IMG/VR virus record: IMGVR_UViG_3300033802_000250
Direction: 5' to 3' (one strand)
DNA length: 64,000 nt
Origin: a virus
Lineage: Duplodnaviria; Caudoviricetes
The first letter of the stretch is position 1. Each line of letters begins with the position of its first letter. Positions 30,898 through 63,432 of the stretch are shown here, one piece after another. The notes beneath the pieces are model-generated. The model was given only the letters and a program-made list of their open reading frames with translations, searched no databases and was not told the DNA's origin. The position numbers and the translations under genes were made by a program.

Positions 30898-31797
30898 ATG
30901 AAGCTCAAGTACATCATCAACGACGACGCCAGACATTACGTCATGGTAGAGATCAATCCGGCAACGAAGAACGCTTCGATCCGGTACTTTCGCAACAACA
31001 ATCTCCAGCAAGAACGAACGATGTCCATTGCGGACGTGATCGACACCGAGCCGACGAAGAATCCGCAGGTTCAGGTCGCAAAGTTCGGGCACATTTGGGA
31101 TCTGCACGTCTTCAAGATTGACATCAACGGTCTTGAGACGCGGCGTACGGTGTCCCTGACCACTCCGGTCGAAGTCGTGTCCACGAAGCTCGAAATGATT
31201 AACGACAGTGCGACGGACGTGACGCTGAAGGATTACATCACGCATCCACTGGACGTTTACGCAAGCCGTCTGACGGCGCTGGAGCATACATTCTCAAACA
31301 CGACCGGCCTGACCGGCACCAGCGGCAATACATCGACAGCGCCGGTTGTAACGCCGAACGGCTACCTCGAACTCGGCAATCTCTCCTCGGTCGCCGCGAC
31401 ATTGGGCTCCGCCATCGACATGAACAACGAAAACTTCGCGCTGGTTCTGGATGTCATCAGCCTCGGGCTCAATGACATCACGACGGAATATCAACTTGAA
31501 GTGAAGCTTGGGTCGGCTGGTTCCAACGCGATCCGGTTTGATGTCAACAAAGGAGTTCTGTTCGTTGTCGGCGGCAATGAGAATGCGGTACTTCCGGCCA
31601 ACGTATGGGTGGATCGCATCAATATGTTACTGGAGGTCAAAAACGGCGTCGCCAAACTGTACGTTAATGGCTCGTCCGCCGATCTGCCGGGCTTCATTGC
31701 GGCAGAAACGCTCGATGCGATTGTACTGTCGTCAATGTGCAACGACACGGAAACGACGCGCGTCAATTACCTGCTGGTACAGCGCATGAGAGGATAA
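30898..31797 (+). CDS. Hypothetical protein with C-terminal beta-sandwich
   Basis: AGGAGGG RBS, Thr/Gly linker, lectin-like beta pattern (AKLYVNG). Confidence 0.6.
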   Translation: MKLKYIINDDARHYVMVEINPATKNASIRYFRNNNLQQERTMSIADVIDTEPTKNPQVQVAKFGHIWDLHVFKIDINGLETRRTVSLTTPVEVVSTKLEMINDSATDVTLKDYITHPLDVYASRLTALEHTFSNTTGLTGTSGNTSTAPVVTPNGYLELGNLSSVAATLGSAIDMNNENFALVLDVISLGLNDITTEYQLEVKLGSAGSNAIRFDVNKGVLFVVGGNENAVLPANVWVDRINMLLEVKNGVAKLYVNGSSADLPGFIAAETLDAIVLSSMCNDTETTRVNYLLVQRMRG

Positions 31798-31838
31798 TAA
31801 ACGGCTCCCGGGGTGATAGTCCTACGGGAGCCGTTTAT
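31797..31838. terminator. Bidirectional terminator between convergent operons
   Basis: Perfect 14-bp inverted repeat ATAAACGGCTCCCG / CGGGAGCCGTTTAT. Confidence 0.85.
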
Positions 31839-31876
31839 GCTCGGTGACAGCCTCAAAGATGTGCTGGAGCGATATA

Positions 31877-32761
31877 TCATATGCCCATCTTCTCCATATT
31901 ATGCCCCAAGCTCAAAATCTTATCCCGGAATTGCTCGAACGGCAGGAAGTCTCCTCTGCATTCGACCTCCCGGGCCCGCTCCCGGAACGCATGAATGCGC
32001 CGGGAGATCTTTTTGTCGGAGCCGCCGGAGAACAGATACAGAACGCGCGGAAACTTGCGGCGGTATAATTCCGCCCAAGACTCCTTGATCCACTGGCTGG
32101 AGAGTTCCCAATCACGATAGCGTTCCAGCTTGCGAAGCTCATCCATTTCCTTCTTTTCGCAGTTGTCTACCTCAATGAAGTATTTGTAGCCGAATCCGTT
32201 CTTCCTGAAGGCCACGATTAAGTCCGGCTCGATTTGCGCCGTCTTCGGCTTGTATGAATAGCAGGCCCGCATCAGATCTATACTAATCTCACCCGTGCGA
32301 TCAAGCTCGGTTAACATACAGTAGGCGTCGAGGATGCGGGCGTGGTGCTGGTATTCCATCGTCAGCGTCTTCGACGGCCTACCCTCGATGTCCAAGTATT
32401 TGTATCCCGCTCGATCCAGCCAGATGTATTGCACGCTGGTTCCCTCCCCTATGGGTAGTTTCGGCGAATACTTGTTGACGAAATGATACTCAAACAACTT
32501 GCGGATGCGGTCGCGGCAGATTTGTTCGCCGCGCCGACACTCAAAGAACGGTCGGATTACCTTTCCGCTCTTGAGTGTGGTCTGCGGCGTCAATATATAA
32601 AGATGACGCACGGTCATAACCGGGAACTGCGCCAGCAAGTGCAACATAGCCACATCCCGTGGCGTGAGGATGTGGCTATGTTGCTGTACCCATTCCTTCG
32701 ATATGGTCGCCACATGTTCCCGCTGAGAGCGGCCCTTACGAATCCTGCCCAAGCGGAACAC
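31877..32761 (-). CDS. Replication-relaxation family protein (wHTH plus PD-(D/E)XK-type relaxase)
   Basis: LTPRDVAML, wHTH region, HH, IEPD, YFIEVD, KLERY. Directly follows the ATPase. Confidence 0.8.
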   Translation of the reverse strand: MFRLGRIRKGRSQREHVATISKEWVQQHSHILTPRDVAMLHLLAQFPVMTVRHLYILTPQTTLKSGKVIRPFFECRRGEQICRDRIRKLFEYHFVNKYSPKLPIGEGTSVQYIWLDRAGYKYLDIEGRPSKTLTMEYQHHARILDAYCMLTELDRTGEISIDLMRACYSYKPKTAQIEPDLIVAFRKNGFGYKYFIEVDNCEKKEMDELRKLERYRDWELSSQWIKESWAELYRRKFPRVLYLFSGGSDKKISRRIHAFRERAREVECRGDFLPFEQFRDKILSLGHNMEKMGI

Positions 32762-35144
32762 CTTCTTCCTCCTCTTTATGCTCGTAGGACTCCAACAATT
32801 CGCGATATTCCTGAACCGTAAGCTTCAGGTTTCGCGCCGAAATATCCTCTCGATGCTCATCCACAGTCTTCGGGGCAAGAATGCGTCTCCACTTTTGTTG
32901 CAGGGCCGGATCCGGGCCGTAGGATTTCGGGAGCATCCCTTTGGCGTTGAAGATGAACGGCTTCAGACTCTCCTTGCCTACATACGTCTTGAAGTACCAG
33001 TGGTATTCGAGCGATTCAAGCTGAGCGAGTTCCTCCTTCGAGATCTTCAGGATACTCGCCATTTCCTTTAGGCCATCGTTGTCAAGCCCGCCGCCGACGA
33101 GGATATGTGGATTCATGCCGATGATCTGGCTCCAGAGCGCCGGGTCGCGCTTAATCACTTGCGTTGGATTCTGAATGAGGAAGTTGTCGCTCACCCGGTA
33201 CTTCCTCGATTTGGAGATGCTGAGTTCAAAGACCGGCGTCGCTGTCATGTATGTCTGCGGCTCGTCGTACATCTTGTGGTGTAGGATGGGCTCCTGCTTG
33301 CGCTGAAGCATTGCTTCTCGCGACAGCGTCGCCGTCCAATAGGCGTAATTGAGAAAACTCATTAGCATCCGCTGTTCCGTCTCCAAAAATACGCCGTTGG
33401 AGAGGTTGTAGAGGATCCACCGCCCTTCATTCATCCATTTGGCGATCTCCAGCCGTCCGCCGCGTCCGCAAAAGATCGGCGCGATCCGTTTGTTGTATTG
33501 CAGGTTATCGAGGCGGTAGAGGATCGGCTGGAGAATTTCATTTATCATCGCCTCGCTCTTGGCGATCTTCGGGAACTCCGATTTCCACCATAGATACAAA
33601 TCCGGGTGTGTTTTACGGATCTTCGGCAGAAACTTGCGGCGGTAATCTTCATCCCGCATCATCAGGATCAATTCCAGAAACGTCGAATCCGGGTCGGTGA
33701 ATACCGTAATGGCCGATTTTTGAAGGAAGGAGTTCATTCGAGCGTAGCTCGCCGTGTGGAAGAAAATCTCGAAGAACTCCGCGAACATCATGCCGATGGT
33801 ATCTGCGTCTGTTCCAAGACTTGAGAAGTTGAAGACGTGGGGATATTCTTGGTTTGCGAAATCGACGAGGACGAGTTTGTCGCGTCGCTCCAGCGGCGTA
33901 CATTCGATTGCTTCGAGGTAGAGCCTTCCGTCTGCAACATCAAAAATGCTTCCACCATGTCCGACGGCAAGGGCTCCTTGCATAAAGACTTTGACGGCAG
34001 TTGATTTTCCACTACCCGGAGGAGCGATCCAAAGTCGAGCCTTTGCGGCTGTGTCAGGATTAGCGATACTAAATCCGACTTCTTTTCCTCGGGAATCGTA
34101 TTCAATGCTATATCCAACAGGAATGATTGCGCTTGTGATACGTTGATCCACATGTTCTTCATCGGGCACCATCCTCTCCAGTCGTTTTGTCTTGATGTCC
34201 TTCGTGGGAAAACACAGCAAGCCTTTCAACTCGTCTTCGCACAGGAGATTATGCGAAGACATAAGAGGCATTTGTCTTCTCTGGATGGACATCAGCGCCG
34301 CTTTCTTGAACAGCACGCCGGACAGACGCCAATTGTTGTAGTAGTTGGTTGCCTTGAATGAGCCCGCAAGTCCTTCGATAATGTCGTTTCGGCGGCCATA
34401 ATCTTTCGCCTGCACCGCCAGCCGGACGGCAACATGGAAGCCGGACTGGCGAATTTTCTTGTGAAAATCGTTGATCTGCCGGTGCTTCTTTTGACTCGGT
34501 CGCTCGCTCTGCTTCTGCTTACCGATGGTGTTGACCCATCGCGTGATGGAACTGTCCAGCATCCGCCCTCCGGCCTGAAGCCAGTTACCATCAGCGACCG
34601 GATCGCCCCGAAGATACGCCTCATAGGTCTTCTCCAGATCCTCCTGCCAACTGTCGAGAATCGGCTCGATCAGAATTTGCACGAAAGCTTTTTCGCCCTC
34701 ACGCAACTCCTCCGTTACATGAAGCATATCTTTGCAGATCATAGTATCGCCGAGTTGAAGCGGGAAGATCGGGTTCTTCGTCAGGTTGAGGGTAGCGATC
34801 AATGTGTCCGGCGGATCCTCCTCAAACGGCCATCCTTTATGGGTATGCTCTTTCACCCCGGCTCCCTTGAACGCGGCCTGAATGCGCTCCTTCATCAGAA
34901 TCTTGTGTCGGGCGGGAACCGTGTAAAGATAAAAGCTGGTATTGTGGTCTGCGTACAGTTCAAATGCGATGACTGGCTGACCACCTCGGAGCGCCTTGAA
35001 TAACTGATCGTTGCGAATAGAGTAGAACGATTTGATGAGTGTACCAAGTTCCGCATTATTGTTGTCGGTCGTGGGCGCGATGCGGTAAGAGACGTAGTCG
35101 TGAACCTTCAGGATGCCGGGGCGGTATCTATTTGCCTCTTGCAC
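32736..35144 (-). CDS. VirD4/TraG/HerA-like DNA-translocating ATPase
   Basis: Walker A APPGSGKS, IFD, Walker B MYDEPQ, SKSRKY...Q motif and an all-alpha insert. No TM segment seen. Confidence 0.8.
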   Translation of the reverse strand: MQEANRYRPGILKVHDYVSYRIAPTTDNNNAELGTLIKSFYSIRNDQLFKALRGGQPVIAFELYADHNTSFYLYTVPARHKILMKERIQAAFKGAGVKEHTHKGWPFEEDPPDTLIATLNLTKNPIFPLQLGDTMICKDMLHVTEELREGEKAFVQILIEPILDSWQEDLEKTYEAYLRGDPVADGNWLQAGGRMLDSSITRWVNTIGKQKQSERPSQKKHRQINDFHKKIRQSGFHVAVRLAVQAKDYGRRNDIIEGLAGSFKATNYYNNWRLSGVLFKKAALMSIQRRQMPLMSSHNLLCEDELKGLLCFPTKDIKTKRLERMVPDEEHVDQRITSAIIPVGYSIEYDSRGKEVGFSIANPDTAAKARLWIAPPGSGKSTAVKVFMQGALAVGHGGSIFDVADGRLYLEAIECTPLERRDKLVLVDFANQEYPHVFNFSSLGTDADTIGMMFAEFFEIFFHTASYARMNSFLQKSAITVFTDPDSTFLELILMMRDEDYRRKFLPKIRKTHPDLYLWWKSEFPKIAKSEAMINEILQPILYRLDNLQYNKRIAPIFCGRGGRLEIAKWMNEGRWILYNLSNGVFLETEQRMLMSFLNYAYWTATLSREAMLQRKQEPILHHKMYDEPQTYMTATPVFELSISKSRKYRVSDNFLIQNPTQVIKRDPALWSQIIGMNPHILVGGGLDNDGLKEMASILKISKEELAQLESLEYHWYFKTYVGKESLKPFIFNAKGMLPKSYGPDPALQQKWRRILAPKTVDEHREDISARNLKLTVQEYRELLESYEHKEEEEGVPLGQDS

Positions 35145-35259
35145 GCCCGCTCACCACCTTGAGCGTCAGGATACCGACGACCATCAATGTAATCGTGTTA
35201 ATGGCAAGCACCGTCGTCTGAATGACCAAGGCAACCGTCATAATTTGCTCAGCCGACAT
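35128..35259 (-). CDS. Single-TM peptide (43 aa, not in the ORF track)
   Basis: AAGGGGGTG RBS; MSAEQIMTVALVIQTTVLAINTITLMVVGILTLKVVSGRARGK*. Overlaps the ATPase start. Confidence 0.7.
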   Translation of the reverse strand: MSAEQIMTVALVIQTTVLAINTITLMVVGILTLKVVSGRARGK

Positions 35260-35271
35260 GGGACACCCCCT

Positions 35272-36186
35272 TCACTTTGAGCGCGTCGCCAGCATTTTCG
35301 CCACTCTGACGATGTTTTTCAGCATGTTCTTTTCGCCGCCGGATGACGGAAAGATGCTCTGAAGCCACGACGGCGGGTAATTCATCACATGTAAACCTCC
35401 GATAGACAGCATCAATCGAACGAGTCCAGAGTTCATACCGTCGATGGTGCCCTCAAACGGGAAGATGTTCGGCGCATACAGAATCACGGCGACCAGACTG
35501 AGCAAAAGGCTTTGATAGACCTGAATACCGTATTTGTATAGCGTATCCCTGAGCCAGCCGCTTGCCACCTGCTCGTAAGGCCGGAACGTGTACGCCAACA
35601 TAACGAATGGCGTCATCACACAGTTGAACAGCAAGCCGAACCAGCGGTTCGCATGAAAAAAGAATGTGCGGATCAGATAGTATCCAAGCACAGCAATAAA
35701 GATGAATGTCAGAAACGCCATGTAGATGCTTGCGCCAAACTGATGCAGAGTGCTGGAATAGATTGCTGAAGAATGAAGGGTGGAACCGGTAATGAGGCCA
35801 ATCAGGGAGACGAGTTCGTTGACTCCCATGCCTGCAAAATAGAACAGGGTCGGCGCAAAAGCTGTAACTGCAAGCGCAATGGGATATCGACGAATGATGG
35901 TGGAGATCGGGGTGTATTGCATGGAAAGCGTGCGCTTGATGCCTTCAATCATGGCGAGTACGGTTACAAGCCCGCCGGAAATGACTCCGAATTTGAACAC
36001 GAGACTCATGGTTGTTGTCGTTTTGAATACGGAGAACGGCGTAAACAAAACATACTTGAGCATTTCGTCGAAGATCCATCCGACAAAGTCGATCAAGAAG
36101 CCGCGCTCTTTTTCAACAATATACTCCTCCGCCGACTGGCATCCCGGCAGAAAAAGACAGGGTAGCGCGAGCGCAAACGCCTTCAG
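35272..36186 (-). CDS. Polytopic membrane protein, VirB6/TrbL-like (start uncertain)
   Basis: About 6-7 TM segments with R...L....P......P....GW pattern, lipobox-like FLPGC, and operon context. Confidence 0.6.
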   Translation of the reverse strand: MKAFALALPCLFLPGCQSAEEYIVEKERGFLIDFVGWIFDEMLKYVLFTPFSVFKTTTTMSLVFKFGVISGGLVTVLAMIEGIKRTLSMQYTPISTIIRRYPIALAVTAFAPTLFYFAGMGVNELVSLIGLITGSTLHSSAIYSSTLHQFGASIYMAFLTFIFIAVLGYYLIRTFFFHANRWFGLLFNCVMTPFVMLAYTFRPYEQVASGWLRDTLYKYGIQVYQSLLLSLVAVILYAPNIFPFEGTIDGMNSGLVRLMLSIGGLHVMNYPPSWLQSIFPSSGGEKNMLKNIVRVAKMLATRSK

Positions 36187-36197
36187 CGTGCGCCGCT

Positions 36198-36695
36198 TTA
36201 CATCAAAGAACCGGGAAAGAGCTTGAGCAAACCTCGGACAATCATGGCTAGGATACCCAACACAGCAGGTGCAGTAAGCACTTGGATCATACCCATGCAG
36301 GCATCCGCGTACCTGCGCCTCGCTTCTTCGCGAAGCCCAATAATCCTTAAAAGACCGGCTATCATAGCCATAATAACGGCGACCGAGACGCAAAGCCCAA
36401 GACAAAGCAATTGGATCTTGAGCAATACCATATCGACTTCCGGCGGGATAACCGCTTCCTTCTTCATGGCTTCGATAGTTTCCTTCGGAAGCGCGGCCCA
36501 CGCCGGATGCGTCGGAGTTACGGCAAGAAGTCCCACAAGTAACCCGAAAACCCGACGCTGTTTTCTTAATGATTTGGGCTCCTTGCCTTGCATAAAATTT
36601 GCGACAGCTTTGATGTCTTTCGCTATTGCTTTCTCAATTCTGACAGGACGAGACTCAAGTGTTACCCGAAACCCTGTCGCCGTTGCGGTCATCAT
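36198..36695 (-). CDS. VirB2/TrbC pilin-like membrane protein
   Basis: Signal-like segment ending AWA, then two TM helices separated by a basic loop (REEARRRY). RBS AAGGTGGTGA. Confidence 0.55.
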   Translation of the reverse strand: MMTATATGFRVTLESRPVRIEKAIAKDIKAVANFMQGKEPKSLRKQRRVFGLLVGLLAVTPTHPAWAALPKETIEAMKKEAVIPPEVDMVLLKIQLLCLGLCVSVAVIMAMIAGLLRIIGLREEARRRYADACMGMIQVLTAPAVLGILAMIVRGLLKLFPGSLM

Positions 36696-36730
36696 CGTTA
36701 TCACCACCTTCAATGGAGTAAGGTGGTTTA

Positions 36731-36760
36731 TAACTATGTCGATTGCTACTCGTCTTATTC
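36731..36760 (-). promoter_or_regulatory. Sporulation-sigma-like promoter (SigE/SigG type) for the transfer operon
   Basis: Minus strand GAATA-N17-CATAGTTA. Imperfect match; no good SigA site seen. Confidence 0.4.
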
Positions 36761-36814
36761 CAAAATTTCCGATACAATAAAGGTATCAAGTTCACAGTAA
36801 AGGAGGTCGTGAAC

Positions 36815-37522
36815 ATGCCACATGCTATTCAGAGTAATGACGATGCGAGTCGAACCGGGCTTTACGTCGGCATTGGGGTAGCAACATTAGGGGTTGCCGG
36901 GGCCATCGTAGCCCACAAGACCGGAGCGTACAAGAAAGCGGCCCGGGCTTTGGGATTGGACGCTAAATCCAGAGCGGCCCGCGCCGCCAAGAAAGAAGAA
37001 GCGTACGCCCGTAACGAAGCCCGCAAGGTCTTCAACGAGAAATTCGGCACAAACGTATCCGGTCTCAGCTACGAGGATAAGCTGAAATATATGAATCAAT
37101 TGGATAACGATGCAGACAAGGATCTGTTCCGCAAGGCGACGTTTGGTGATAATGACTGGAGACAATATAAGGAGGAGGTCGAGAAGAAGATTACTGATTC
37201 CCGAATAGCCTCGGTGAATGCAACGGACGAAGGCCAGAAGATCGCAGAACGGCTCAAACAAACCGAAACGGGCCGCCAAGTCAACAACTTGCGCGAGCGG
37301 CTGAATCGTCAACAAGAGGTAAAAGCAAAAATGGATGCTACGCTTGTACATGAGCGGGCATATTCGACAGTGGATCAGATGTACAATGATCGCATTCAAG
37401 CCGAGCAAATTCTGAATCGAGTAGAGCGGGCTCAAGCTATCAACGGTATGCTGGTTGAACCTGCGGAAGTCGTTCTCTCAAGATTGGATGCAAAGCGTAA
37501 GCAAATGCAAAGAAATTCATGA
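36815..37522 (+). CDS. Membrane-anchored coiled-coil protein
   Basis: AAAGGAGG RBS, Gly-rich TM near the N-terminus, helical charged remainder. Confidence 0.7.
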   Translation: MPHAIQSNDDASRTGLYVGIGVATLGVAGAIVAHKTGAYKKAARALGLDAKSRAARAAKKEEAYARNEARKVFNEKFGTNVSGLSYEDKLKYMNQLDNDADKDLFRKATFGDNDWRQYKEEVEKKITDSRIASVNATDEGQKIAERLKQTETGRQVNNLRERLNRQQEVKAKMDATLVHERAYSTVDQMYNDRIQAEQILNRVERAQAINGMLVEPAEVVLSRLDAKRKQMQRNS

Positions 37523-37777: not shown

Positions 37778-37839
37778 CAAAAAGAAGGAACCAACGGCGT
37801 ACTGCGGTTCAGGGCCGCAGTACGACACGATTGGTTCCT
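37778..37839 (-). terminator. Long interrupted hairpin, probable terminator between convergent genes
   Basis: Outer stem AGGAACCAA/TTGGTTCCT, inner stem CGTACTGCGG/CCGCAGTACG. The upstream A tract reads as a U tract on the minus strand. Confidence 0.65.
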
Positions 37840-38054
37840 ATCTGTGCGACAATAACATCTCGGGCCGGAGCCAAGTCTTGCCCATCAAATATTAAAGTCT
37901 CGTTGTCATCAATAACTCCACCCTGCTCTACCTTCAACCCCAAGCGTATCAAGTGCTTCATGCGTTCCGAACGGTTTTTGACATCACGGAATGCCTCCTC
38001 AAGATCCGTATCCCTGCCATCTTTCGCCAGTCTACATTGGAGCAATGGAATCAT
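37809..38054 (-). CDS. Small ribbon-helix-helix-like DNA-binding protein
   Basis: Alternating strand LQCRL, then two helices (NRSERMKHLIRLGL). GGAGGGG RBS. Confidence 0.5.
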   Translation of the reverse strand: MIPLLQCRLAKDGRDTDLEEAFRDVKNRSERMKHLIRLGLKVEQGGVIDDNETLIFDGQDLAPARDVIVAQIGTNRVVLRP

Positions 38055-38088
38055 TTACATCCCCTCCAAAAGCTGATGTTATGTCATA

Positions 38089-38119
38089 ATTGTATGGCAA
38101 AGGTTTTTGTCCGTATGAC
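38089..38119 (-). promoter_or_regulatory. SigE-like promoter
   Basis: Minus strand GTCATA-N17-CATACAAT. Confidence 0.65.
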
Positions 38120-38121
38120 AG

Positions 38122-38151
38122 GAATAAAACACCTGTGTTACGGATAGACTA
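38122..38151 (+). promoter_or_regulatory. SigF-like promoter
   Basis: GAATA-N15-GGATAGACTA, against consensus GYWTA-N15-GGnnAnAnTA. Confidence 0.65.
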
Positions 38152-38190
38152 GCTTTAGGTGACAATCTCAAAGATGACAGGAGGAATTTC

Positions 38191-38649
38191 GTGATGTCAA
38201 AAGAGAAGCGAGTCCGCTACTCTGGAGCGTACAATCGTCTATTCCCCGTGAAAGTATCCACGAACACCTTCATCACCATCTACATCTTACACCTATTGCT
38301 AATGAAGGGAAGACTGTATGGCAAAGAGATCATCAACTCCATCGAAGACCGCTTTTCCGGTCAATGGAAACCATCACACGGTTTGGTATATCCGATACTC
38401 CGGGAACTTGAGGCGGAAGGTTTAGTCCGGGGCGAATGGATTGGAGATAGCTCAAAGAAGACGATCCGCATTTACGAGATCACGGAGAAGGGTCGCGAGG
38501 TGTACGACAAGGAAAAAGAAAAGCACAAAGGCGTCTTCGCTCAATCGTATGCCATCATGGAAACCCTGATGGGCGACCTGTACGAAGACTACCGACCGAT
38601 TGAGTGGATTGACGCTGACAAAAAGGAGAATAAAGCCGCCTTCGCTTAA
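38191..38649 (+). CDS. PadR-family transcriptional regulator
   Basis: YGKEII...WKPSHGLVYPILRELEAEGLV...YEITEKG. Confidence 0.9.
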   Translation: MMSKEKRVRYSGAYNRLFPVKVSTNTFITIYILHLLLMKGRLYGKEIINSIEDRFSGQWKPSHGLVYPILRELEAEGLVRGEWIGDSSKKTIRIYEITEKGREVYDKEKEKHKGVFAQSYAIMETLMGDLYEDYRPIEWIDADKKENKAAFA

Positions 38650-43532: not shown

Positions 43533-45965
43533 TCAATCCAGTGTACATTTTCCACCAATACAGCCCGAGAGCGCAAGCATTTCTTCTTCGGTACTCATGC
43601 CGCTTTGTTTGTCGTCCGGTTTGTCCGTTGCGAGACAGGATCGCACGTATTCTTGGACAATAGCGAGTTGCTCCGACGAAAGCTTATCAAGCCCTTCAAC
43701 GAGCGGTTTTTCAGTCAGATTGCTGGTGGATCCGTCACTGGTCAATACCTGCTCATCCCGGGAGCCGTCTCGGTAATAGGTGAACCCTTTGAGCCGCAGT
43801 TTCCATGCGAGCATAATCATTTCACGGATGTCATCCAACGTATGGCTGTTTGGCGCGTTGATCGTCTTCGCGATGGATGAGCAGATCCATTTCTGCATAG
43901 CGGCCTGCATACGGATGTGTTCCTCCGGCGTAAGATCCATCGCCGTCACATAATAGTCCGGCAACATCTTGAAGATGCCGTCTTTGATCGAGCCGTCTTC
44001 ATTGTACGGATTGATCCCGTTTTGTTCAAACCAGCGAATGGCAATCGGCTCGACAATTTGGCTCATGCCAAGCCGCGAGTTCCGCCAGTAGGAGAACATG
44101 AAGTACGGTTCGCACCCGGTCGATGTTCCAGTCATCGTGCCGGTGGATCCCGTCGGAGCAATCGTAAAGATCGTCACATTGCGGATGCCGTACTTGCGGA
44201 TACGCTCCTCCAGTTCCGGGAAGGCCGGGAGGATATTTTCCCGCATATGTCCACTGGAGAGGAATCCTTCGGCGTCGAACCACGGGAACGGCCCCTTTTC
44301 GGCGGCCAGATCGACTGATGCATGATAACCCACGCCTGCCATAAAGCGATGCAGATGGTCGGTAAACTCGATGGCTTCCGGTGAGCCATAACGGAGCCCG
44401 AGTCTGATCAGCATCTCGGCCAAGCCCATTTCGCCGAGGCCGATACGGCGTTCGCCTTTCTGCTGGATTTCGTTCTCCTTGAAGAAGTACGGCGTATGGT
44501 CAACGACGTTGTCAAGGAATCGCACAGCACGACGGATAACGTATGCGAGACGATCCCACTTGACATCCTTCTTCCAGTCACCGGTCACTTCATCATTGAC
44601 AAATCTGGAAAGATTGATGGCCGACAAGTTGCAGACACCCCATGCGGGCAACCCTTGTTCTCCGCATGGGTTAGTTGCATCAATTCGCCCACGCCGGTAA
44701 TAGTTCGAGTTGGACATGTACCGGTAATATTCAAGGAATACGACACCCGGCTCCGCGCTCATCCAGTTGCATTCGACGATCAGATCGTAGATGTCGCGGG
44801 CTCGGTAAATATGATACACCACCAGCGATTCCGCACCGTGCTTTGCGATCCACGTCGGCAGGTCGCCGTCCCAATCTTCGTTGTAATTCGGATGCCGCAC
44901 GTCCGGGAATACCAGTTTCCACATTTCGTCGTTCTCCACGGCCTTCATGAAGGCTTCGCTAACCAATACCGAAAGGTTGGCGTTTTCAACGCCGTGCGCG
45001 TAAATCGTGGAGCCCGGAAATTTATGCTCGAACTTGTTCTTGATGTACTGGAACGGTGAACCGATGGTTCCGTCCGGCAGACGCCGTGTCTTTTGCGACA
45101 GTTTGCAGGTGATAAACTCGATCAAGTCCGGGTGCCAGTCGCAAAGCATCCCCATCGTGGCTCCGCGTCGTGAGCCACCCTGCTCGATCAGACCAGTGTA
45201 GTACGACTTGCCACCGCCCCACGACACAGCGCCGCTGGAGCGACCGCGTACACCCATCACCGGGGTTGTTCTCGGGCGGGCAGACGACCAGTTTTGGCCG
45301 ACACCGCCGCCGCGCGAATGGATTTCGACTTGAATGCCGAGCGATTCAATCAGACCTTGGCGGCTGTCATGCGCGTTCGGAATAACATAGCAGTTGAACA
45401 GCGTCAGTTGATCCGGTGTTGCGCCGATGTTCTGTTTGTATTCCTTCGTTCCGGCACCGGTATTCACCCGGCCTGCCGGGATGAGTTCCTCGTTGATGAG
45501 AATCTCATAATTGTCACGGTAAACCCGTTCCCGAGTGGCTTCGTCTTTCTCGACGCTGGCGACGCCGAGTGCGACGCGGTGACAGATCTGTCCCCATGTG
45601 TACTCCAGCAGTTTGTCCACCTTGCCGATATACTGGATGAACCATTTCTTGAAGTCGCCGCCGGAGATAAGCTCAAGCGCGACGAACCGGTTCTCGCCCT
45701 GTTCAGAACTCAGGGCACAGGGAAGCACATGCTGGTCGGGATCAAACAGCCCCACGGCGCTACGCTCATCCAGAAAACCTCTGACGATACCGATTTCCTT
45801 CACCGGAAATTTCGGATGTTCGACCGTCAGAACGACGCACCAGTCGCCGGTTTTCAGATCGTTGCGATTGCCTTTGATCGCGTAACGATCCAGACGGATT
45901 TTATCTTTAATGTCCAGCGGTTGCGCCGGAACAGGTGGTTTCTCAAGGCTGAATGCGGAAGTCAT
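43533..45965 (-). CDS. nrdJ: Class II (adenosylcobalamin-dependent) ribonucleotide reductase
   Basis: PAGR, LFNCYV, QGGSRRGA, TNPCGEQ, CNL, RRIGLG, TIAPTG and C-terminal CIGGKC. No small subunit nearby. Confidence 0.92.
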   Translation of the reverse strand: MTSAFSLEKPPVPAQPLDIKDKIRLDRYAIKGNRNDLKTGDWCVVLTVEHPKFPVKEIGIVRGFLDERSAVGLFDPDQHVLPCALSSEQGENRFVALELISGGDFKKWFIQYIGKVDKLLEYTWGQICHRVALGVASVEKDEATRERVYRDNYEILINEELIPAGRVNTGAGTKEYKQNIGATPDQLTLFNCYVIPNAHDSRQGLIESLGIQVEIHSRGGGVGQNWSSARPRTTPVMGVRGRSSGAVSWGGGKSYYTGLIEQGGSRRGATMGMLCDWHPDLIEFITCKLSQKTRRLPDGTIGSPFQYIKNKFEHKFPGSTIYAHGVENANLSVLVSEAFMKAVENDEMWKLVFPDVRHPNYNEDWDGDLPTWIAKHGAESLVVYHIYRARDIYDLIVECNWMSAEPGVVFLEYYRYMSNSNYYRRGRIDATNPCGEQGLPAWGVCNLSAINLSRFVNDEVTGDWKKDVKWDRLAYVIRRAVRFLDNVVDHTPYFFKENEIQQKGERRIGLGEMGLAEMLIRLGLRYGSPEAIEFTDHLHRFMAGVGYHASVDLAAEKGPFPWFDAEGFLSSGHMRENILPAFPELEERIRKYGIRNVTIFTIAPTGSTGTMTGTSTGCEPYFMFSYWRNSRLGMSQIVEPIAIRWFEQNGINPYNEDGSIKDGIFKMLPDYYVTAMDLTPEEHIRMQAAMQKWICSSIAKTINAPNSHTLDDIREMIMLAWKLRLKGFTYYRDGSRDEQVLTSDGSTSNLTEKPLVEGLDKLSSEQLAIVQEYVRSCLATDKPDDKQSGMSTEEEMLALSGCIGGKCTLD

Positions 45966-45979
45966 GTGGTCACGTCTCC

Positions 45980-46207
45980 TTACATGTTCAATTGCTTGCC
46001 ACAATGGCGGTCGGCGCATATATACTCGATGCGCCGTTCGATTGTAGGGAGAGGGGCGGAGGCTTCTGCCGGGTCGTGCATATCTCTCGGCTTCGCCTTG
46101 ATGCTGACCGTAACCACTGTCCGCTCGATAAATTCGGGATGACCGCAATGAGAACAACGAATGAAATCTTCCCCTAGTATATCGGCGATTTCACGGCTCA
46201 CTCCCAT
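45980..46207 (-). CDS. Small zinc-ribbon protein
   Basis: CSHCG...CADRHCG. Confidence 0.65.
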   Translation of the reverse strand: MGVSREIADILGEDFIRCSHCGHPEFIERTVVTVSIKAKPRDMHDPAEASAPLPTIERRIEYICADRHCGKQLNM

Positions 46208-54796: not shown

Positions 54797-55008
54797 GCTG
54801 GATACCTCCCTATTTTCTTCACTACAAGATTGTCGCCGATGGTAATCGGCGGTTGTTTGGCTTCTGTGCCATCGTCATTCAGCAGTTGAATGCGTAGCAA
54901 GGTAACGTTGGGATTGAGGGATGGAAAGGTGCGCAACACCCTCCACCCCCTGTTTTCGAGAAAGGGATGCCGGATGCGGATGACATCATCAACATCATAC
55001 AGCATCAA
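54769..55008 (-). CDS. Small hypothetical protein
   Basis: ORF tiles with its neighbours. Confidence 0.5.
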   Translation of the reverse strand: MMLYDVDDVIRIRHPFLENRGWRVLRTFPSLNPNVTLLRIQLLNDDGTEAKQPPITIGDNLVVKKIGRYPAWQKRGNKN

Positions 55009-57313
55009 TCACATGCTCCATATGCTCGGCATCCAAATCTTGCCGACACATCGGACATTTGTTGCCGAGCCGCGCAAAGATATCTTTGACCTTTGTTTGA
55101 AGCGACGTTTCAATGTCCCTCCAATAATCCAGCGATTCATTGAAGGTGCGAATATCCGCATCCGCCGAATTCAACTCGTCATGAAGCTGTCGGAGTTCAT
55201 AGAGTCCATCCATGAGGGCTTCGGCTTGCTCGACAAGAGTCTGCGCCTGCGACAAATCGCCGAAGCGGGATAACTGCTTCTCGTATGTGGAGACGGCGTC
55301 TTCCGCTTCAACCAGATCGGCGTACATCTCCTCAAGCTCATTTAGCTCCCGCGTAAGCTCCTCTGCCTTCTGGAAGTTTTGCTCCGCTTCATCCAGACGG
55401 TCAAAAGCCCGCAGGCGCTCCGTATACACCTTCACATCGCGGCTGGCCTCCGCCAAATCGTCAGCCATGATCTCCAGATCCCGGAGTTCTTCCGCCATGC
55501 GTTCCGCCTTCTCCAGCCGCTTCTCGGCTTTTGGCAGATCGGCGAACTCCTTGAGTTGTTTCTTGTAGGTGACGATGTCATTGTCCGCGCTAGCGATCTC
55601 GGCCTGCATGTCGCGCAGTTCGTCGAGTTCTTTCTCCTGCCGCTCCAGCTTTTGAATCAGAAGCGTCGCAAGATCAATTTGCTGTTTGAGTTGCGGAAGG
55701 TCGTCGTATTCCTTGAGCTTTTCGTTGAGTTCTTCAATCCGCTTTTCTGCGGCATTGATGTCTTTGGTCAGGTTCAGGAGATCTTTGCGCTTTTCTTTGA
55801 TTGCACTATCGACAAAATGCACGCCTGTAAGTCGTCCAATAACAGCCGCTCTAACTGAAGGCGGCTCCGAGAGCAGGAAATGTCCATCCAATTGATACGC
55901 AAAGTTGAGAGAACGCTCAATTCCCGGAGCGAGTTCAACTCTTGGCATCTGGTGTGTATTTGCCACATCAATTGGAATATTGTTAGAGAAACCCTTGAAC
56001 TCCTGCGTCTTCCCGTGAGCGTCACCCACAATGTAGCTTCCTGCGTCGGAGTTAGTGCGCGTTCTTGTAATAAAAGAACCATCGCTGAAACGAACAGTGA
56101 CCGTAGCTCTGGACTCGCCATGCCGGATAAAATCCGATCCCTTGGGCTCGTTGTAAAGCGCCCAACGGAGAGCCCGAATAATGGCCGATTTTCCACTATC
56201 ACTCGCCCCCGTAATTGCATTGAGTCCCTTCGGTGAGAACTCGATCTTCGTATGCTTGTGGCTTTGGAAATTTTCGATCTCGATCTCGGTGATTGCAATC
56301 GAGCGGCGTTTCTCGATGTAGCCGTCGAGCTTATTGTCTTGAATAGCCTTTTCGGCTTCAACAATGGCCTCGAACGCCGCATCCAGAACATCCTGCTCGA
56401 TGTTGTTGCTCTTGGACAGTTCAGCCAGCACGTCTTTCGGATCGAAGGCATCGAACGTCATAGCATCCGCAATCGTTTGCTCGAACGCTTCCAGATAACG
56501 CTCATGCACCTTTGCTTCGTCGATGGGCGTGCGGTCAAATACCTCATCGCCCGGCATCGCCGTTGCGTATTCCACGAACGTCACGTCGATCTTCTTCTTC
56601 GTAGCCTCGATGATCGCGTACTGCGGAATCCGGTCGATGTTGCCTTTAGAGCCTTCGTCACGCCCGGTGGAACCGGGGTTTCCGAAAATCGTGCCGTTCT
56701 CCTCGTGGATTTCCATACCCGGATGATAATGACCATTCAGAACGACATGCGCTTTGGTGCGCACATCCTTCGTCAGCGTGTGGCGCACATCCGGGTGGAA
56801 CGGTTTCTGGAGCAACATGCCGTGCGAAAACAGCACGTTCCATCTGGCATTGTATGACGGATCCACTTGGTAATCAGCCGGGCTCGTATCAATGTCTTTG
56901 TCGTATTCCCGGCCAAAGATTTCGACCGTCACGCCTTTGGCGTCGGTCAGAAGGTAACTGCGTTTGCGCGTCAGCAGTTTGACAAGGCCAGACTCCGACA
57001 GGACACCAATGGCCGTTTGGTCGATGGTGTCCATCGAATACCCGAATAGGTCGTGATTGCCGGGCACAAGATAGATCGGAATGCCAAGCTCACGGATGCG
57101 CCGGAAGATCTTCGCGTATTGTACGATGATCGAAAACGCGACGCGCGGCGTATCAAACAAGTCGCCGCCGAAGACAACCGCGTCCGGCTTCTCGTAGATG
57201 CACGCTTGCTCGAACTCCAGCATCTTCTTGTACAGCGCCAACGGATAATCGTCGATCCGGGATCCGGGGTTTCGGCCTTTGATGTGGTGGTCTGTAGCGT
57301 ACAGGATCTTCAT
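54995..57313 (-). CDS. SbcD/Mre11 nuclease fused to the SbcC/Rad50 N-terminal half
   Basis: DHH, GGDLFD, GNHD and GHYH, then IENFQSH, Walker A GASDSGKS, Q-loop, coiled coil, ending at the CPMC hook. Confidence 0.9.
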   Translation of the reverse strand: MKILYATDHHIKGRNPGSRIDDYPLALYKKMLEFEQACIYEKPDAVVFGGDLFDTPRVAFSIIVQYAKIFRRIRELGIPIYLVPGNHDLFGYSMDTIDQTAIGVLSESGLVKLLTRKRSYLLTDAKGVTVEIFGREYDKDIDTSPADYQVDPSYNARWNVLFSHGMLLQKPFHPDVRHTLTKDVRTKAHVVLNGHYHPGMEIHEENGTIFGNPGSTGRDEGSKGNIDRIPQYAIIEATKKKIDVTFVEYATAMPGDEVFDRTPIDEAKVHERYLEAFEQTIADAMTFDAFDPKDVLAELSKSNNIEQDVLDAAFEAIVEAEKAIQDNKLDGYIEKRRSIAITEIEIENFQSHKHTKIEFSPKGLNAITGASDSGKSAIIRALRWALYNEPKGSDFIRHGESRATVTVRFSDGSFITRTRTNSDAGSYIVGDAHGKTQEFKGFSNNIPIDVANTHQMPRVELAPGIERSLNFAYQLDGHFLLSEPPSVRAAVIGRLTGVHFVDSAIKEKRKDLLNLTKDINAAEKRIEELNEKLKEYDDLPQLKQQIDLATLLIQKLERQEKELDELRDMQAEIASADNDIVTYKKQLKEFADLPKAEKRLEKAERMAEELRDLEIMADDLAEASRDVKVYTERLRAFDRLDEAEQNFQKAEELTRELNELEEMYADLVEAEDAVSTYEKQLSRFGDLSQAQTLVEQAEALMDGLYELRQLHDELNSADADIRTFNESLDYWRDIETSLQTKVKDIFARLGNKCPMCRQDLDAEHMEHVIDAV

Positions 57314-61470: not shown

Positions 61471-63432
61471 TTATACTTCCTCGATCAGCGAATCCGGGAT
61501 CGTGTACAGGAAGCGCGATGGGCTTTTGGTTTCCCAAAGCCGTTGATAATTCATCCGTTGCCGTGCCATCGTGATATACAATAGCTTCTCCGCTCGGGTA
61601 ATACCGACGTAAGCAAGGCGGCGTTCTTCCGCGATATCGCCTTCTTCAACAGCGCTGGCGTGCGGAAGCAATCCCTCCTCGAATCCGACGAGAAAGACCA
61701 CGGGAAATTCCAACCCTTTTGCCGTATGCAAGGTCATCATCTGCACCTTGTCGGCATCCTGCTTAGCGGATACCTTGTCAGCCTGTGCGGTAAGCGCTAT
61801 TTGATCGAGGAAGTCCTGAACCGTTGGATGATTGTTCTCCTCCTCGTAACCTTTGGCGATCTTCACAAGCTCCATAATGTTGTCCACACGCCGCTCGGAT
61901 TCCTCGGAGCCTTCCTCCTTCAGTTTGTCAACATACCCGGTGTGCTTGAACACAAGATCAAGCATATCGCTGATCGGAGTGTCCGTGACATGCTTTCCGG
62001 CCTCATAAATCGTATTGAGCCGGACAACGATCTGCGTAAGCCCGGCGATAGCCGCCTGCGCCTTGACCGTTTTCGGTTTGAAATACTCCACCGCTTCATA
62101 CAAGCTGGAGTTTTCCTTGCGTTGTTTGCTGACGATGGCTTCGATGGTTGTCTTGCCGATGCCGGGAAGCATTCCAAGCACGCGCTCGCACGCAATATCG
62201 TTGTCAGGGTTGATCGCAAGCTGAAGCCATGCAAGGATGTCTTTGATCTCCTTGCGCTCATAGAAGCTGAAACCGGACACCATATTGTAGGGGATCTGGT
62301 GGATCATCAGCTTTTCCTCGAACAGCCGCGACTGAACATTGGTACGGTAAAGAATTGCGAAATCGCCGTAGGAGTAGCCCTCGAATCGCACAAGGTTATT
62401 GATCTCCTGCGCGACGAACTCGGCCTCCTCCATATCGGTGCGAGCGGAGAACTTGCGGATTTTGTCGCCGACCGAATTGTTCGAGAAGCAGGTTTTCTTC
62501 ATCTGGTTCTGCGCGTTCTCCATCAGCTTGTTGCCCGCTTCGACAATGGTCTGCGTGGAACGATAATTCTGCTCCAGCTTGACGATCTTTGCGCCGGGAT
62601 AATCCTGCTGGAAGTTCAGGATCTTCTGAACGTCTGCGCCACGCCAGCCATAGATCGACTGGTAGTCATCGCCGACGATGAAGATATTGTTCGCCTTCCC
62701 GACAATTTGTTTAACGATGCGGTACTGGCATTCGTTTGTATCCTGATACTCGTCCACCATGACGTACTTGAATTTCTTCTGGAACTTGCGACGCACGTCC
62801 GGGTACATCTCCAGTACATGAACCATGCGCATCAGCAGGTCGTCAAAGTCCATCGCGTTCAGGCGTTGAAGCCTGTCTTGGTATTCCTTGTAGACCTTGT
62901 AGAACGTATGATCTTTGTCATACAGGATGTGATTCCGGGCGTCCTCCGGCGTCATCATCTCATTCTTGCAATTCGAGATGCGGTCTTTGTAGATGCGCAC
63001 GGCGGTCGCGTTGCTCTCCAGATTGAAGTCTTTCAGTACGCTACGGATGACCTTGTTTTGGTCATCTTCGTCATAGATCGTCCAATTCTTCTTCAGACCG
63101 GCCTCCGCATAGAACCTGTGAAGCCAGCGCACACACAGGCTATGGAATGTTCCGATGGTCAGCTTCTTGGTACTATCCGGGCCGACCAGTTTTCCGATTC
63201 GCTCCTTCATCTCATTGGCGGCCTTGTTGGTAAACGTGACCGCCATGATATGTCGAGGATCAACACCCTTCGCGATCAAATACGCAATGCGTGTGGTCAA
63301 TACAAGGGTTTTCCCAGAGCCCGCGCCTGCAATGACGAGCGTGGGCTCCTTGAGCGTATCTTTCACAGCAACGCGCTGTTGGGGGTTCAATCCTTTGAGC
63401 AACTGCTTTCTCTGCTCGATGGTCGTTGTCAT
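61471..63432 (-). CDS. pcrA: PcrA/UvrD SF1 helicase
   Basis: AGAGSGKT, TFTNKAA, VDEYQD, GDDYQSIY, LEQNYRS, TLHTAKGLEF, EERRLAYVGITRA. Confidence 0.95.
   Translation of the reverse strand: MTTTIEQRKQLLKGLNPQQRVAVKDTLKEPTLVIAGAGSGKTLVLTTRIAYLIAKGVDPRHIMAVTFTNKAANEMKERIGKLVGPDSTKKLTIGTFHSLCVRWLHRFYAEAGLKKNWTIYDEDDQNKVIRSVLKDFNLESNATAVRIYKDRISNCKNEMMTPEDARNHILYDKDHTFYKVYKEYQDRLQRLNAMDFDDLLMRMVHVLEMYPDVRRKFQKKFKYVMVDEYQDTNECQYRIVKQIVGKANNIFIVGDDYQSIYGWRGADVQKILNFQQDYPGAKIVKLEQNYRSTQTIVEAGNKLMENAQNQMKKTCFSNNSVGDKIRKFSARTDMEEAEFVAQEINNLVRFEGYSYGDFAILYRTNVQSRLFEEKLMIHQIPYNMVSGFSFYERKEIKDILAWLQLAINPDNDIACERVLGMLPGIGKTTIEAIVSKQRKENSSLYEAVEYFKPKTVKAQAAIAGLTQIVVRLNTIYEAGKHVTDTPISDMLDLVFKHTGYVDKLKEEGSEESERRVDNIMELVKIAKGYEEENNHPTVQDFLDQIALTAQADKVSAKQDADKVQMMTLHTAKGLEFPVVFLVGFEEGLLPHASAVEEGDIAEERRLAYVGITRAEKLLYITMARQRMNYQRLWETKSPSRFLYTIPDSLIEEV

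Follow-up and report, generated by a model that had tools for sequence, protein, structure and literature searches.

A conjugation-derived operon of a 0305phi8-36-like Bacillales phage with a predicted pilin-VirB6 frameshift, a sporulation-type promoter and a possible role in forespore entry

The closest described relative of the locus considered here is the "DNA translocation operon" orf200-207 of Bacillus thuringiensis phage 0305phi8-36, which was reported to encode a relaxase resembling MobC of CloDF13, together with a coupling ATPase and a homolog of VirB6; its deletion had no effect on plaques, and cell-to-cell transfer in biofilms was suggested as its role (Pathria 2012; PMC3357382). We analyzed a corresponding operon in a stretch of 64,000 nt from the virus record IMGVR_UViG_3300033802_000250 (hereafter the window; positions are counted from its first letter).

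Several other systems resemble this operon in part. A similar translocon was suggested for SPP1 gp31.1-gp32 by Godinho et al. (PMC6316719). SPP1 gp31.1/gp31.2/gp32 and SPO1 gp29.1 and gp27.9-27.3 comprise a soluble TrwB/VirB4-like ATPase and small membrane proteins, and both sets are non-essential (PMC6316719; PMC3357382); a relaxase is not annotated beside gp32 in SPP1, and a VirB6-like gene was not detected in SPO1. SPO1 forms virospores, and segregation genes were suggested to help in this process (PMC12991052); in our comparison it bears an ATPase-relaxase-ParM version of the module. Other phages and plasmids join the same pilin-VirB6 pair to a SpoIIIE/FtsK motor; this ParM-pilin-VirB6-FtsK/SpoIIIE block, which occurs in Bastillevirinae, in prophages and on Bacillales plasmids, was described as having an unknown role (PMC3601020, PMC4299906). 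The block shares with the window operon the pilin and VirB6 families, an open -1 overlap and the N-terminal domain of the ATPase, whereas it has an FtsK motor acting on double-stranded DNA in place of the coupling protein and relaxase, and a GGAGGTG element in place of a long stem. In pWBG4-type plasmids, Replic_Relax comes immediately after a homologous ATPase core (E 1e-13 to 1e-15); unlike the window operon, these plasmids encode VirB4, VirB8-like and large VirB6-like proteins and reside in non-spore-formers. The crenarchaeal Ced DNA import system is built from a like-minded minimal set of pilin-like proteins, one VirB6-like protein and one VirB4/HerA ATPase, but it is a chromosomal importer without a relaxase.

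The window is phage DNA with virion, primase, helicase and RuvC genes, and the gene order around the operon is co-linear with that of 0305phi8-36; by these features, it is part of a 0305phi8-36-like Bacillales phage. Its VirB6-like protein was located on a metagenome contig of 208,070 nt, and close relatives on contigs of 211-213 kb. All five open reading frames (ORFs) that an earlier note, made from the sequence alone, had assigned to one minus-strand operon are present, abut or overlap each other, and are syntenic orthologs (tblastn) of 0305phi8-36 orf204, 203, 202, 201 and 200 (48, 47, 39, 62 and 62% identity, respectively), in the same order and position. As in that phage, genes for a relaxase (62%), a soluble coupling ATPase (62%) and a VirB6-like protein (47%) are combined in one operon, in agreement with the published assignments, while ParM (orf207) is absent from the window, unlike in the 0305phi8-36 operon. 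The terminator proposed to close the operon corresponds to a strong terminator-like hairpin between convergent genes (31797-31842, not assigned to a strand; RNAfold). The operon itself has been known since 2012, and the new elements are the predicted frameshift and the sporulation-type promoter: Pathria 2012 did not identify orf204 as a pilin gene and did not report a frameshift, a promoter or a role in sporulation (PMC3357382), and a literature search, which did not extend to subscription papers, returned no report of a frameshift or a spore test of the operon. The best reading of the locus is entry of phage DNA into the forespore; it is our leading hypothesis because the gene identities, the missing parts of the type IV secretion system (T4SS) and the sporulation-type promoter survive analysis and the host range fits.

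The first gene of the operon encodes a VirB2/TrbC-like pilin of 165 aa (36198-36695, minus strand), an ortholog of gp204 (48% identity) with a match to phrog_3528, a long leader and two C-terminal transmembrane (TM) helices. Its relatives match the T4SS_pilin/TrbC profiles, and its neighbors in the ESM Atlas are pilins at 0.89, which is a lead. The pilin-like identity given in the earlier note thus stands and its start is corrected, ATG 36695 with a good Shine-Dalgarno (SD) sequence being the most likely one. The second gene encodes a VirB6-like membrane protein in the -1 frame relative to the pilin (35272-36594, minus strand; 47% identity to gp203), with a predicted precursor of 474 aa, a lipobox LPGC (Cys codon at 36141) and a predicted mature part of 289 aa. 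Among 48,161 chains, the best structural match is TrwI/VirB6 (Z 9.6, 231 residues aligned, rmsd 5.2), a Z score that is modest for a helical protein; the second match is DotA (Z 8.9). Together with the TrbL_4 matches of distant relatives, the structural match assigns the protein to VirB6-like polytopic subunits of Gram-positive conjugative T4SS. In the profile searches proposed in the note, the window ATPase, VirB6-like protein and pilin had no direct recognition in Pfam or NCBIfam, and a sequence search of PDB was empty. The third gene (35128-35259, minus strand) encodes a 43-aa peptide orthologous to gp202, with one TM segment, as initially described, and its own SD sequence; it is possibly a membrane anchor of the ATPase. 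This gene was not called in L010, L019, L020 and L022.

The VirB6-like N-terminus, in which a basic and then a hydrophobic segment lead up to the lipobox, directly follows the pilin stop codon, and no start codon precedes it. The VirB6-like frame is instead open far back into the pilin gene, by 433 nt in the window and by 364-493 nt in 17 of 18 loci; the same holds for all 11 loci fetched later. When the pilin protein was fixed and its codons were resampled, such an open -1 frame had P of 0.0005-0.023 per locus. The loci are related and the trials are not independent, although they span several phage groups and plasmids. A comparable opening was found in 0 of 110 and 2 of 58 ordinary genes, and the +1 frame is closed. 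Close to the beginning of this opening, at pilin codons 33-34, lies the slippery heptamer A AAT TTT (36594-36600, minus strand), a predicted -1 frameshift site that is present in the slip-competent phase in all nine close loci lacking a VirB6 start; elsewhere, Asn-Phe is encoded in this way in 0 of 41 and 1 of 95 cases. A stem-loop, the predicted frameshift stimulator, begins 6 nt past the heptamer (36522-36587, minus strand) and folds in the same nine loci, with 83.5% of cells paired and scores exceeding both shuffled and slid controls; 5 of its 11 pairs show changes on both sides. The stem alone is not a proof, because its single-sequence folding z-scores are modest (about -1 to -3, and +0.2 in one case) and its arms lie within coding sequence.

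In locus L019, an ATG overlaps the stop codon of the pilin gene, and the heptamer, the pilin leader and the open frame are lacking; having its own start and none of the frameshift features, this locus serves as an internal control. The window thus combines an in-frame X_XXY_YYZ heptamer, a spacer within the 5-9 nt range, a 3' structure and a conserved open -1 frame, as described for programmed -1 frameshifting. Because no usable start exists, the frame is open, the heptamer is accompanied by a conserved stem and L019 lacks all of these, we consider it very likely that the VirB6-like protein is made by -1 recoding at A_AAT_TTT, through either ribosomal or polymerase slippage. The predicted transframe product consists of 34 + 440 aa. 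The overlap peptide lacks conservation and would be lost from the product by cleavage at the lipobox.

Other explanations of the junction were considered and rejected. The window sequence across the promoter, slip site and junction recurs without a difference in three independent assemblies, which rules out a sequence or assembly error. Translation from GTG 36501, implied by the 409-aa VirB6 ORF, is contradicted by the lack of conservation both of upstream in-frame starts and of the overlap peptide; the VirB6-like identity given in the earlier note holds, and the ORF itself is the overlapping -1 frame. The note had missed the predicted coupling of the pilin and VirB6 genes by frameshifting. 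For reinitiation at the pilin stop, an ATG is present in L019 alone; other loci have GTA, CTA, TTA or CTG in its place. Finally, slippage at the C-terminal Phe-Pro codons lacks a conserved heptamer.

A pilus-on-platform architecture would call for more pilin than VirB6. In the tail-chaperone genes G/GT of tailed phages, a heptamer-driven -1 shift also sets the ratio of two products (cited in PMC4299906); unlike in G/GT, the window shift is predicted near the start of the first gene, two reading frames would be used over about 130 codons, and the extension looks like a leader that is discarded. A conserved frameshift linking pilin to VirB6 would be an unreported type of recoding in secretion-system genes, and would mean that the gene is mis-annotated in well over 100 Bacillus phage genomes. 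Variants of the junction were also observed. In the FtsK-type loci, a T-run takes the position of the heptamer, followed about 20 nt after the TTT codon by an SD-like GGAGGTG and not by a long stem (L006, L007, L013, L014, L024-L026 and L048-L058). Two loci (L008:5999 and L010:6171) retain the heptamer and stem and lack the lipobox, L010 being also without a called TM peptide gene. On the contig of P0004, no pilin was called ahead of the VirB6-like gene, and two reverse-strand ORFs fill its place, which is either a loss or a missed call.

The promoter upstream of the pilin gene was described in the note as sporulation-type rather than SigA, and this assignment is upheld: a sigmaA scan of the window found no minus-strand site, while a candidate sporulation-sigma promoter is located at 36729-36761 (minus strand), with the -35 element GGAATA (36761-36756), a 17-nt spacer and the -10 element CATAGTTA (36738-36731). 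The pattern (A/C)T(A/G)-17-CATA is found 48-66 nt upstream of the pilin gene in all ten close loci (with a 16-nt spacer in one), in line with the published sigmaE pattern of ATA plus CATA at 16-18 nt spacing (PMC3789822). With a leave-one-out positional weight matrix (PWM), the site upstream of the pilin gene has the top score in the window (28.7 vs. 10.1 bits) and, narrowly, in the 219-kb genome of 0305phi8-36 (16.6 vs. 15.7). Because the motif has few copies genome-wide, a promoter for a phage sigma factor is argued against. The consensus of SpoIIID sites is WWRRACARNY, and 8-10 of its 10 positions are matched in all ten loci by a SpoIIID-like site, TAAGACGAGT in the window (36748-36757, minus strand), which overlaps the -35 element. 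At spoIID and spoIIIAA, SpoIIID sites also overlap sigmaE promoters (PMC517825). A second sigmaE-like promoter of textbook form, GTCATA-17-CATACAAT with GGACAA in the spacer (38087-38119, minus strand), is the joint second-best PWM site of the window. It precedes the gene of a ParR-like small DNA-binding protein orthologous to gp206 (37809-38054, minus strand; tblastn E 1e-6); both were overlooked in the note. The pilin promoter looks sigmaE-like, with sigmaG as another candidate, and its control by a sporulation sigma factor is probable from the motif matches.

The ParR-like gene is retained in the window, where no match to its ParM partner was found. The interval between the genes of the PadR regulator and of the ParR-like protein (window 38054-38191) likewise lacks the ParM actin gene in L008, L010, L011, L019, L020 and L023, with L002, L021 and L022 as the contrast set; the loci without ParM still hold the ParR-like gene and a sigmaE-like promoter. 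These observations bear on a rather unlikely explanation, that the module is linked to sporulation with another direction or cargo, being expressed in the forespore by sigmaG, working alongside ParMR positioning prior to septum closure, or transporting protein in place of DNA. The -35 GAATA/GCATA and the T at position 6 of the -10 element match sigmaG in several loci, the annotators of Bc431v3 marked SigG-like sites at the FtsK-type locus, and ParM/ParR flank many modules. However, the CATACAGT/CATACAAT sites and the SpoIIID-like motif indicate the mother cell, the intact relaxase indicates a DNA cargo, and ParM was lost in the window and several relatives while the pump was kept.

The fourth gene (32736-35144, minus strand; 62% identity to gp201) encodes an ATPase of the VirD4/VirB4/HerA family with an N-terminal DUF8128 domain. 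The description of this 802-aa protein as soluble and VirD4/HerA-like proved correct, with Walker A and B motifs and zero TM segments. Its structural model (pLDDT 77) matches TrwK/VirB4 (TrwK E 5e-14), HerA and TrwB in Foldseek, and the best local fit is to TrwB (TM score 0.6). In sequence, it matches the ATPase located beside Replic_Relax in pWBG4 and in one B. subtilis plasmid, and not their separate VirB4; since the matches are to the coupling proteins of pWBG4-type plasmids, the ATPase is coupling-protein-like. Folds and profiles thus support a predicted VirD4/VirB4-family ATPase closest to coupling proteins. The DUF8128 domain is related to the N-terminal domain of the FtsK-type ATPases encoded after the shared pilin-VirB6 pair in other elements (E to 3e-22), so the motor seems to have been swapped behind a shared adapter.

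The last gene (31877-32761, minus strand) encodes a Replic_Relax (MOBC-type) relaxase. The replication-relaxation protein named in the note matches the Replic_Relax profile above the cut-off (E 3e-7), and PD..ExD..K..RY, the acidic catalytic motif of MOBC relaxases, is intact. The relaxase with this motif lies beside the coupling-like ATPase, as in MOBC mobilization modules. The absence of VirB4, VirB8 and a cell-wall hydrolase from the window, also stated in the note, agrees with tblastn with plasmid VirB4, VirB8, TcpE and VirB6 and phage M23 queries, which gave zero matches, single-sequence queries having limited reach for VirB8, TcpE and the hydrolase. VirB4, VirB8 and TcpE are not found in the complete 0305phi8-36 genome either, and its one M23 domain is remote from the operon, at 65.6 kb. 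The single ATPase of the operon also aligns structurally to TrwK/VirB4. An M23 peptidase is encoded upstream of the pilin in many related modules (L024:2275-2835, L025:2373-2969, L026, L029, L016, L048, L050, L052, L055 and L056), so the family as a whole is not characterized by the lack of a wall hydrolase. In phage G (L005:3276-4925, gp155), a VirB4-like ATPase adjoins the coupling-like ATPase, and a relaxase is located about 5 kb upstream.

This gene set bears directly on cell-to-cell spread of phage DNA, via a reduced channel in biofilms or via the T4SS of a co-resident plasmid or integrative and conjugative element, which we regard as unlikely. The relaxase and coupling ATPase form a standard mobilization pair, the nearest relatives on plasmids belong to full conjugation operons, and M23 peptidases and the VirB4-like ATPase of phage G occur in related modules. 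Such spread is disfavored, on the other hand, by the sporulation-type promoter, by the FtsK motor without an adjacent relaxase in many relatives, by the lack of VirB4/VirB8 in the complete relative, and by the apparent absence of the module from phages of non-spore-formers.

The distribution of the module was surveyed in 50,697 phage records. The ATPase matched 61 of them (Bacillus, Lysinibacillus and D6E), the relaxase 42, all from Bacillus, and the VirB6-like protein 159, of which 157 are from Bacillus and two are Bastille-like phages labeled as Xanthomonas and Staphylococcus. These host labels are doubtful: MN364664 (Xoo-sp15, 64% identical to Troll gp225) and MN940411 (f2b1) are both Bastille-like with the module. 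Among Herelleviridae of non-spore-formers, the operon profiles had no match in phages K, A511, phiEF24C and LP65, in a search whose positive controls worked for two of the three profiles (SPO1 and Troll score for ATPases). In plasmids, the VirB6-like matches are from Bacillales and one plasmid of "Arthrobacter citreus NEB 577" that bears a small acid-soluble spore protein (SASP) gene, which suggests a mislabeled spore-former. Plasmid copies adjoin SASP genes or an sdp operon (L014:10462-10662, L016:12808-12981 and L013:926-3048). Restriction to spore-formers, a check proposed in the note, is therefore seen for the named phage hosts and the VirB6-like plasmid matches, with three doubtful labels, and fails for the ATPase core, which is found in Staphylococcus plasmids.

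A scenario consistent with these observations is a sporulation-timed minimal DNA translocator, derived from conjugation, in a lytic Bacillales phage. After asymmetric division of the infected host, mother-cell sigmaE would transcribe the operon, with later modulation by SpoIIID. Most ribosomes would yield pilin. A fraction of them, shifted into the -1 frame at A_AAT_TTT, would cross the pilin gene in that frame and produce the VirB6-like lipoprotein, from which the long leader would be cleaved; the frameshift ratio would provide few VirB6 platforms serving many pilins. The pilin, VirB6-like protein and TM peptide would form a short conduit through the thin membranes of the septum or of engulfment. 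Phage DNA would be nicked by the relaxase and driven by the ATPase into the forespore, giving a phage-carrying spore. Because the pump is predicted to act after septation, wall-crossing parts are missing, deletion has no plaque phenotype and the hosts are spore-formers, phage DNA may be moved in this way from the doomed mother cell to the forespore.

We judge the chances of such mother-cell-to-forespore transport by the operon to be about even. The dedicated forespore translocator proposed in the note keeps its basis in the gene identities, absent T4SS parts, promoter and host range. The operon had already been published, and its ATPase and relaxase form the ordinary mobilization pair of conjugative plasmids. 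Several points weigh against forespore entry. The direct checks cover 64 kb of a genome of about 208 kb, about two thirds of which lie outside the window; an oriT was not found, a forespore-side partner is not known, and a profile search detected no VirB6-like gene in SPO1. In half of the loci, the -10 element matches sigmaG about as well as sigmaE, the SpoIIID-like site depends on the consensus used, and similar sites at some loci outside the 0305-like clade (an Alicyclobacillus plasmid, L055 and SPP1 gene 31) are not clearly above chance. Conjugative plasmids of Staphylococcus also contain the ATPase core and relatives of the ATPase-relaxase pair. The restriction to spore-formers is in part a matter of phage ancestry, and a class-level GTDB survey of 300 Bacilli genomes gave one new match, in a SpoIIID-positive genome, too few to test it. 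The broader proposal, that lytic phages of spore-formers repurposed conjugation parts as an intracellular "self-conjugation" machine for carrying their genome from mother cell to forespore, its subunit ratio set by a frameshift that creates a long dual-coding region, is tentative, its chances falling slightly short of even.

A non-transfer role (membrane-anchored DNA processing, a replication compartment, exclusion, or decaying plasmid cargo) is improbable. The catalytic motifs are intact, the recoding signal and promoter are conserved across loci about 60% identical in protein, and the module is retained in unrelated phage families; these features have to be set against the PHROGs label of the relaxase, "replication initiation by nicking", the deletability of the island, and the loss of parts in some relatives (the lipobox in L008 and L010, ParM in many).

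Entry of lytic phages into spores is usually credited to the host segregation machinery. If forespore transport by the module is confirmed, active spore entry would be a widespread branch of the phage life cycle, relevant to phage persistence in soil and to the behavior of biocontrol phages. The module offers a direct genetic test of spore entry, via the existing delta(118,397-124,982) mutant of 0305phi8-36 and via SPO1.

Several neighboring genes deserve mention. An inverted, non-conserved gene (36743-37522, plus strand) lies between the ParR-like gene and the pilin promoter; in relatives, the same slot holds inverted genes of differing length, and gp205 is a minor virion protein. A single ORF of 772 aa (54995-57313, minus strand) unites Mre11/SbcD and Rad50/SbcC domains. 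The window also encodes a class II (B12-dependent) ribonucleotide reductase (43533-46157, minus strand) and a PcrA/UvrD helicase (61471-63432, minus strand).

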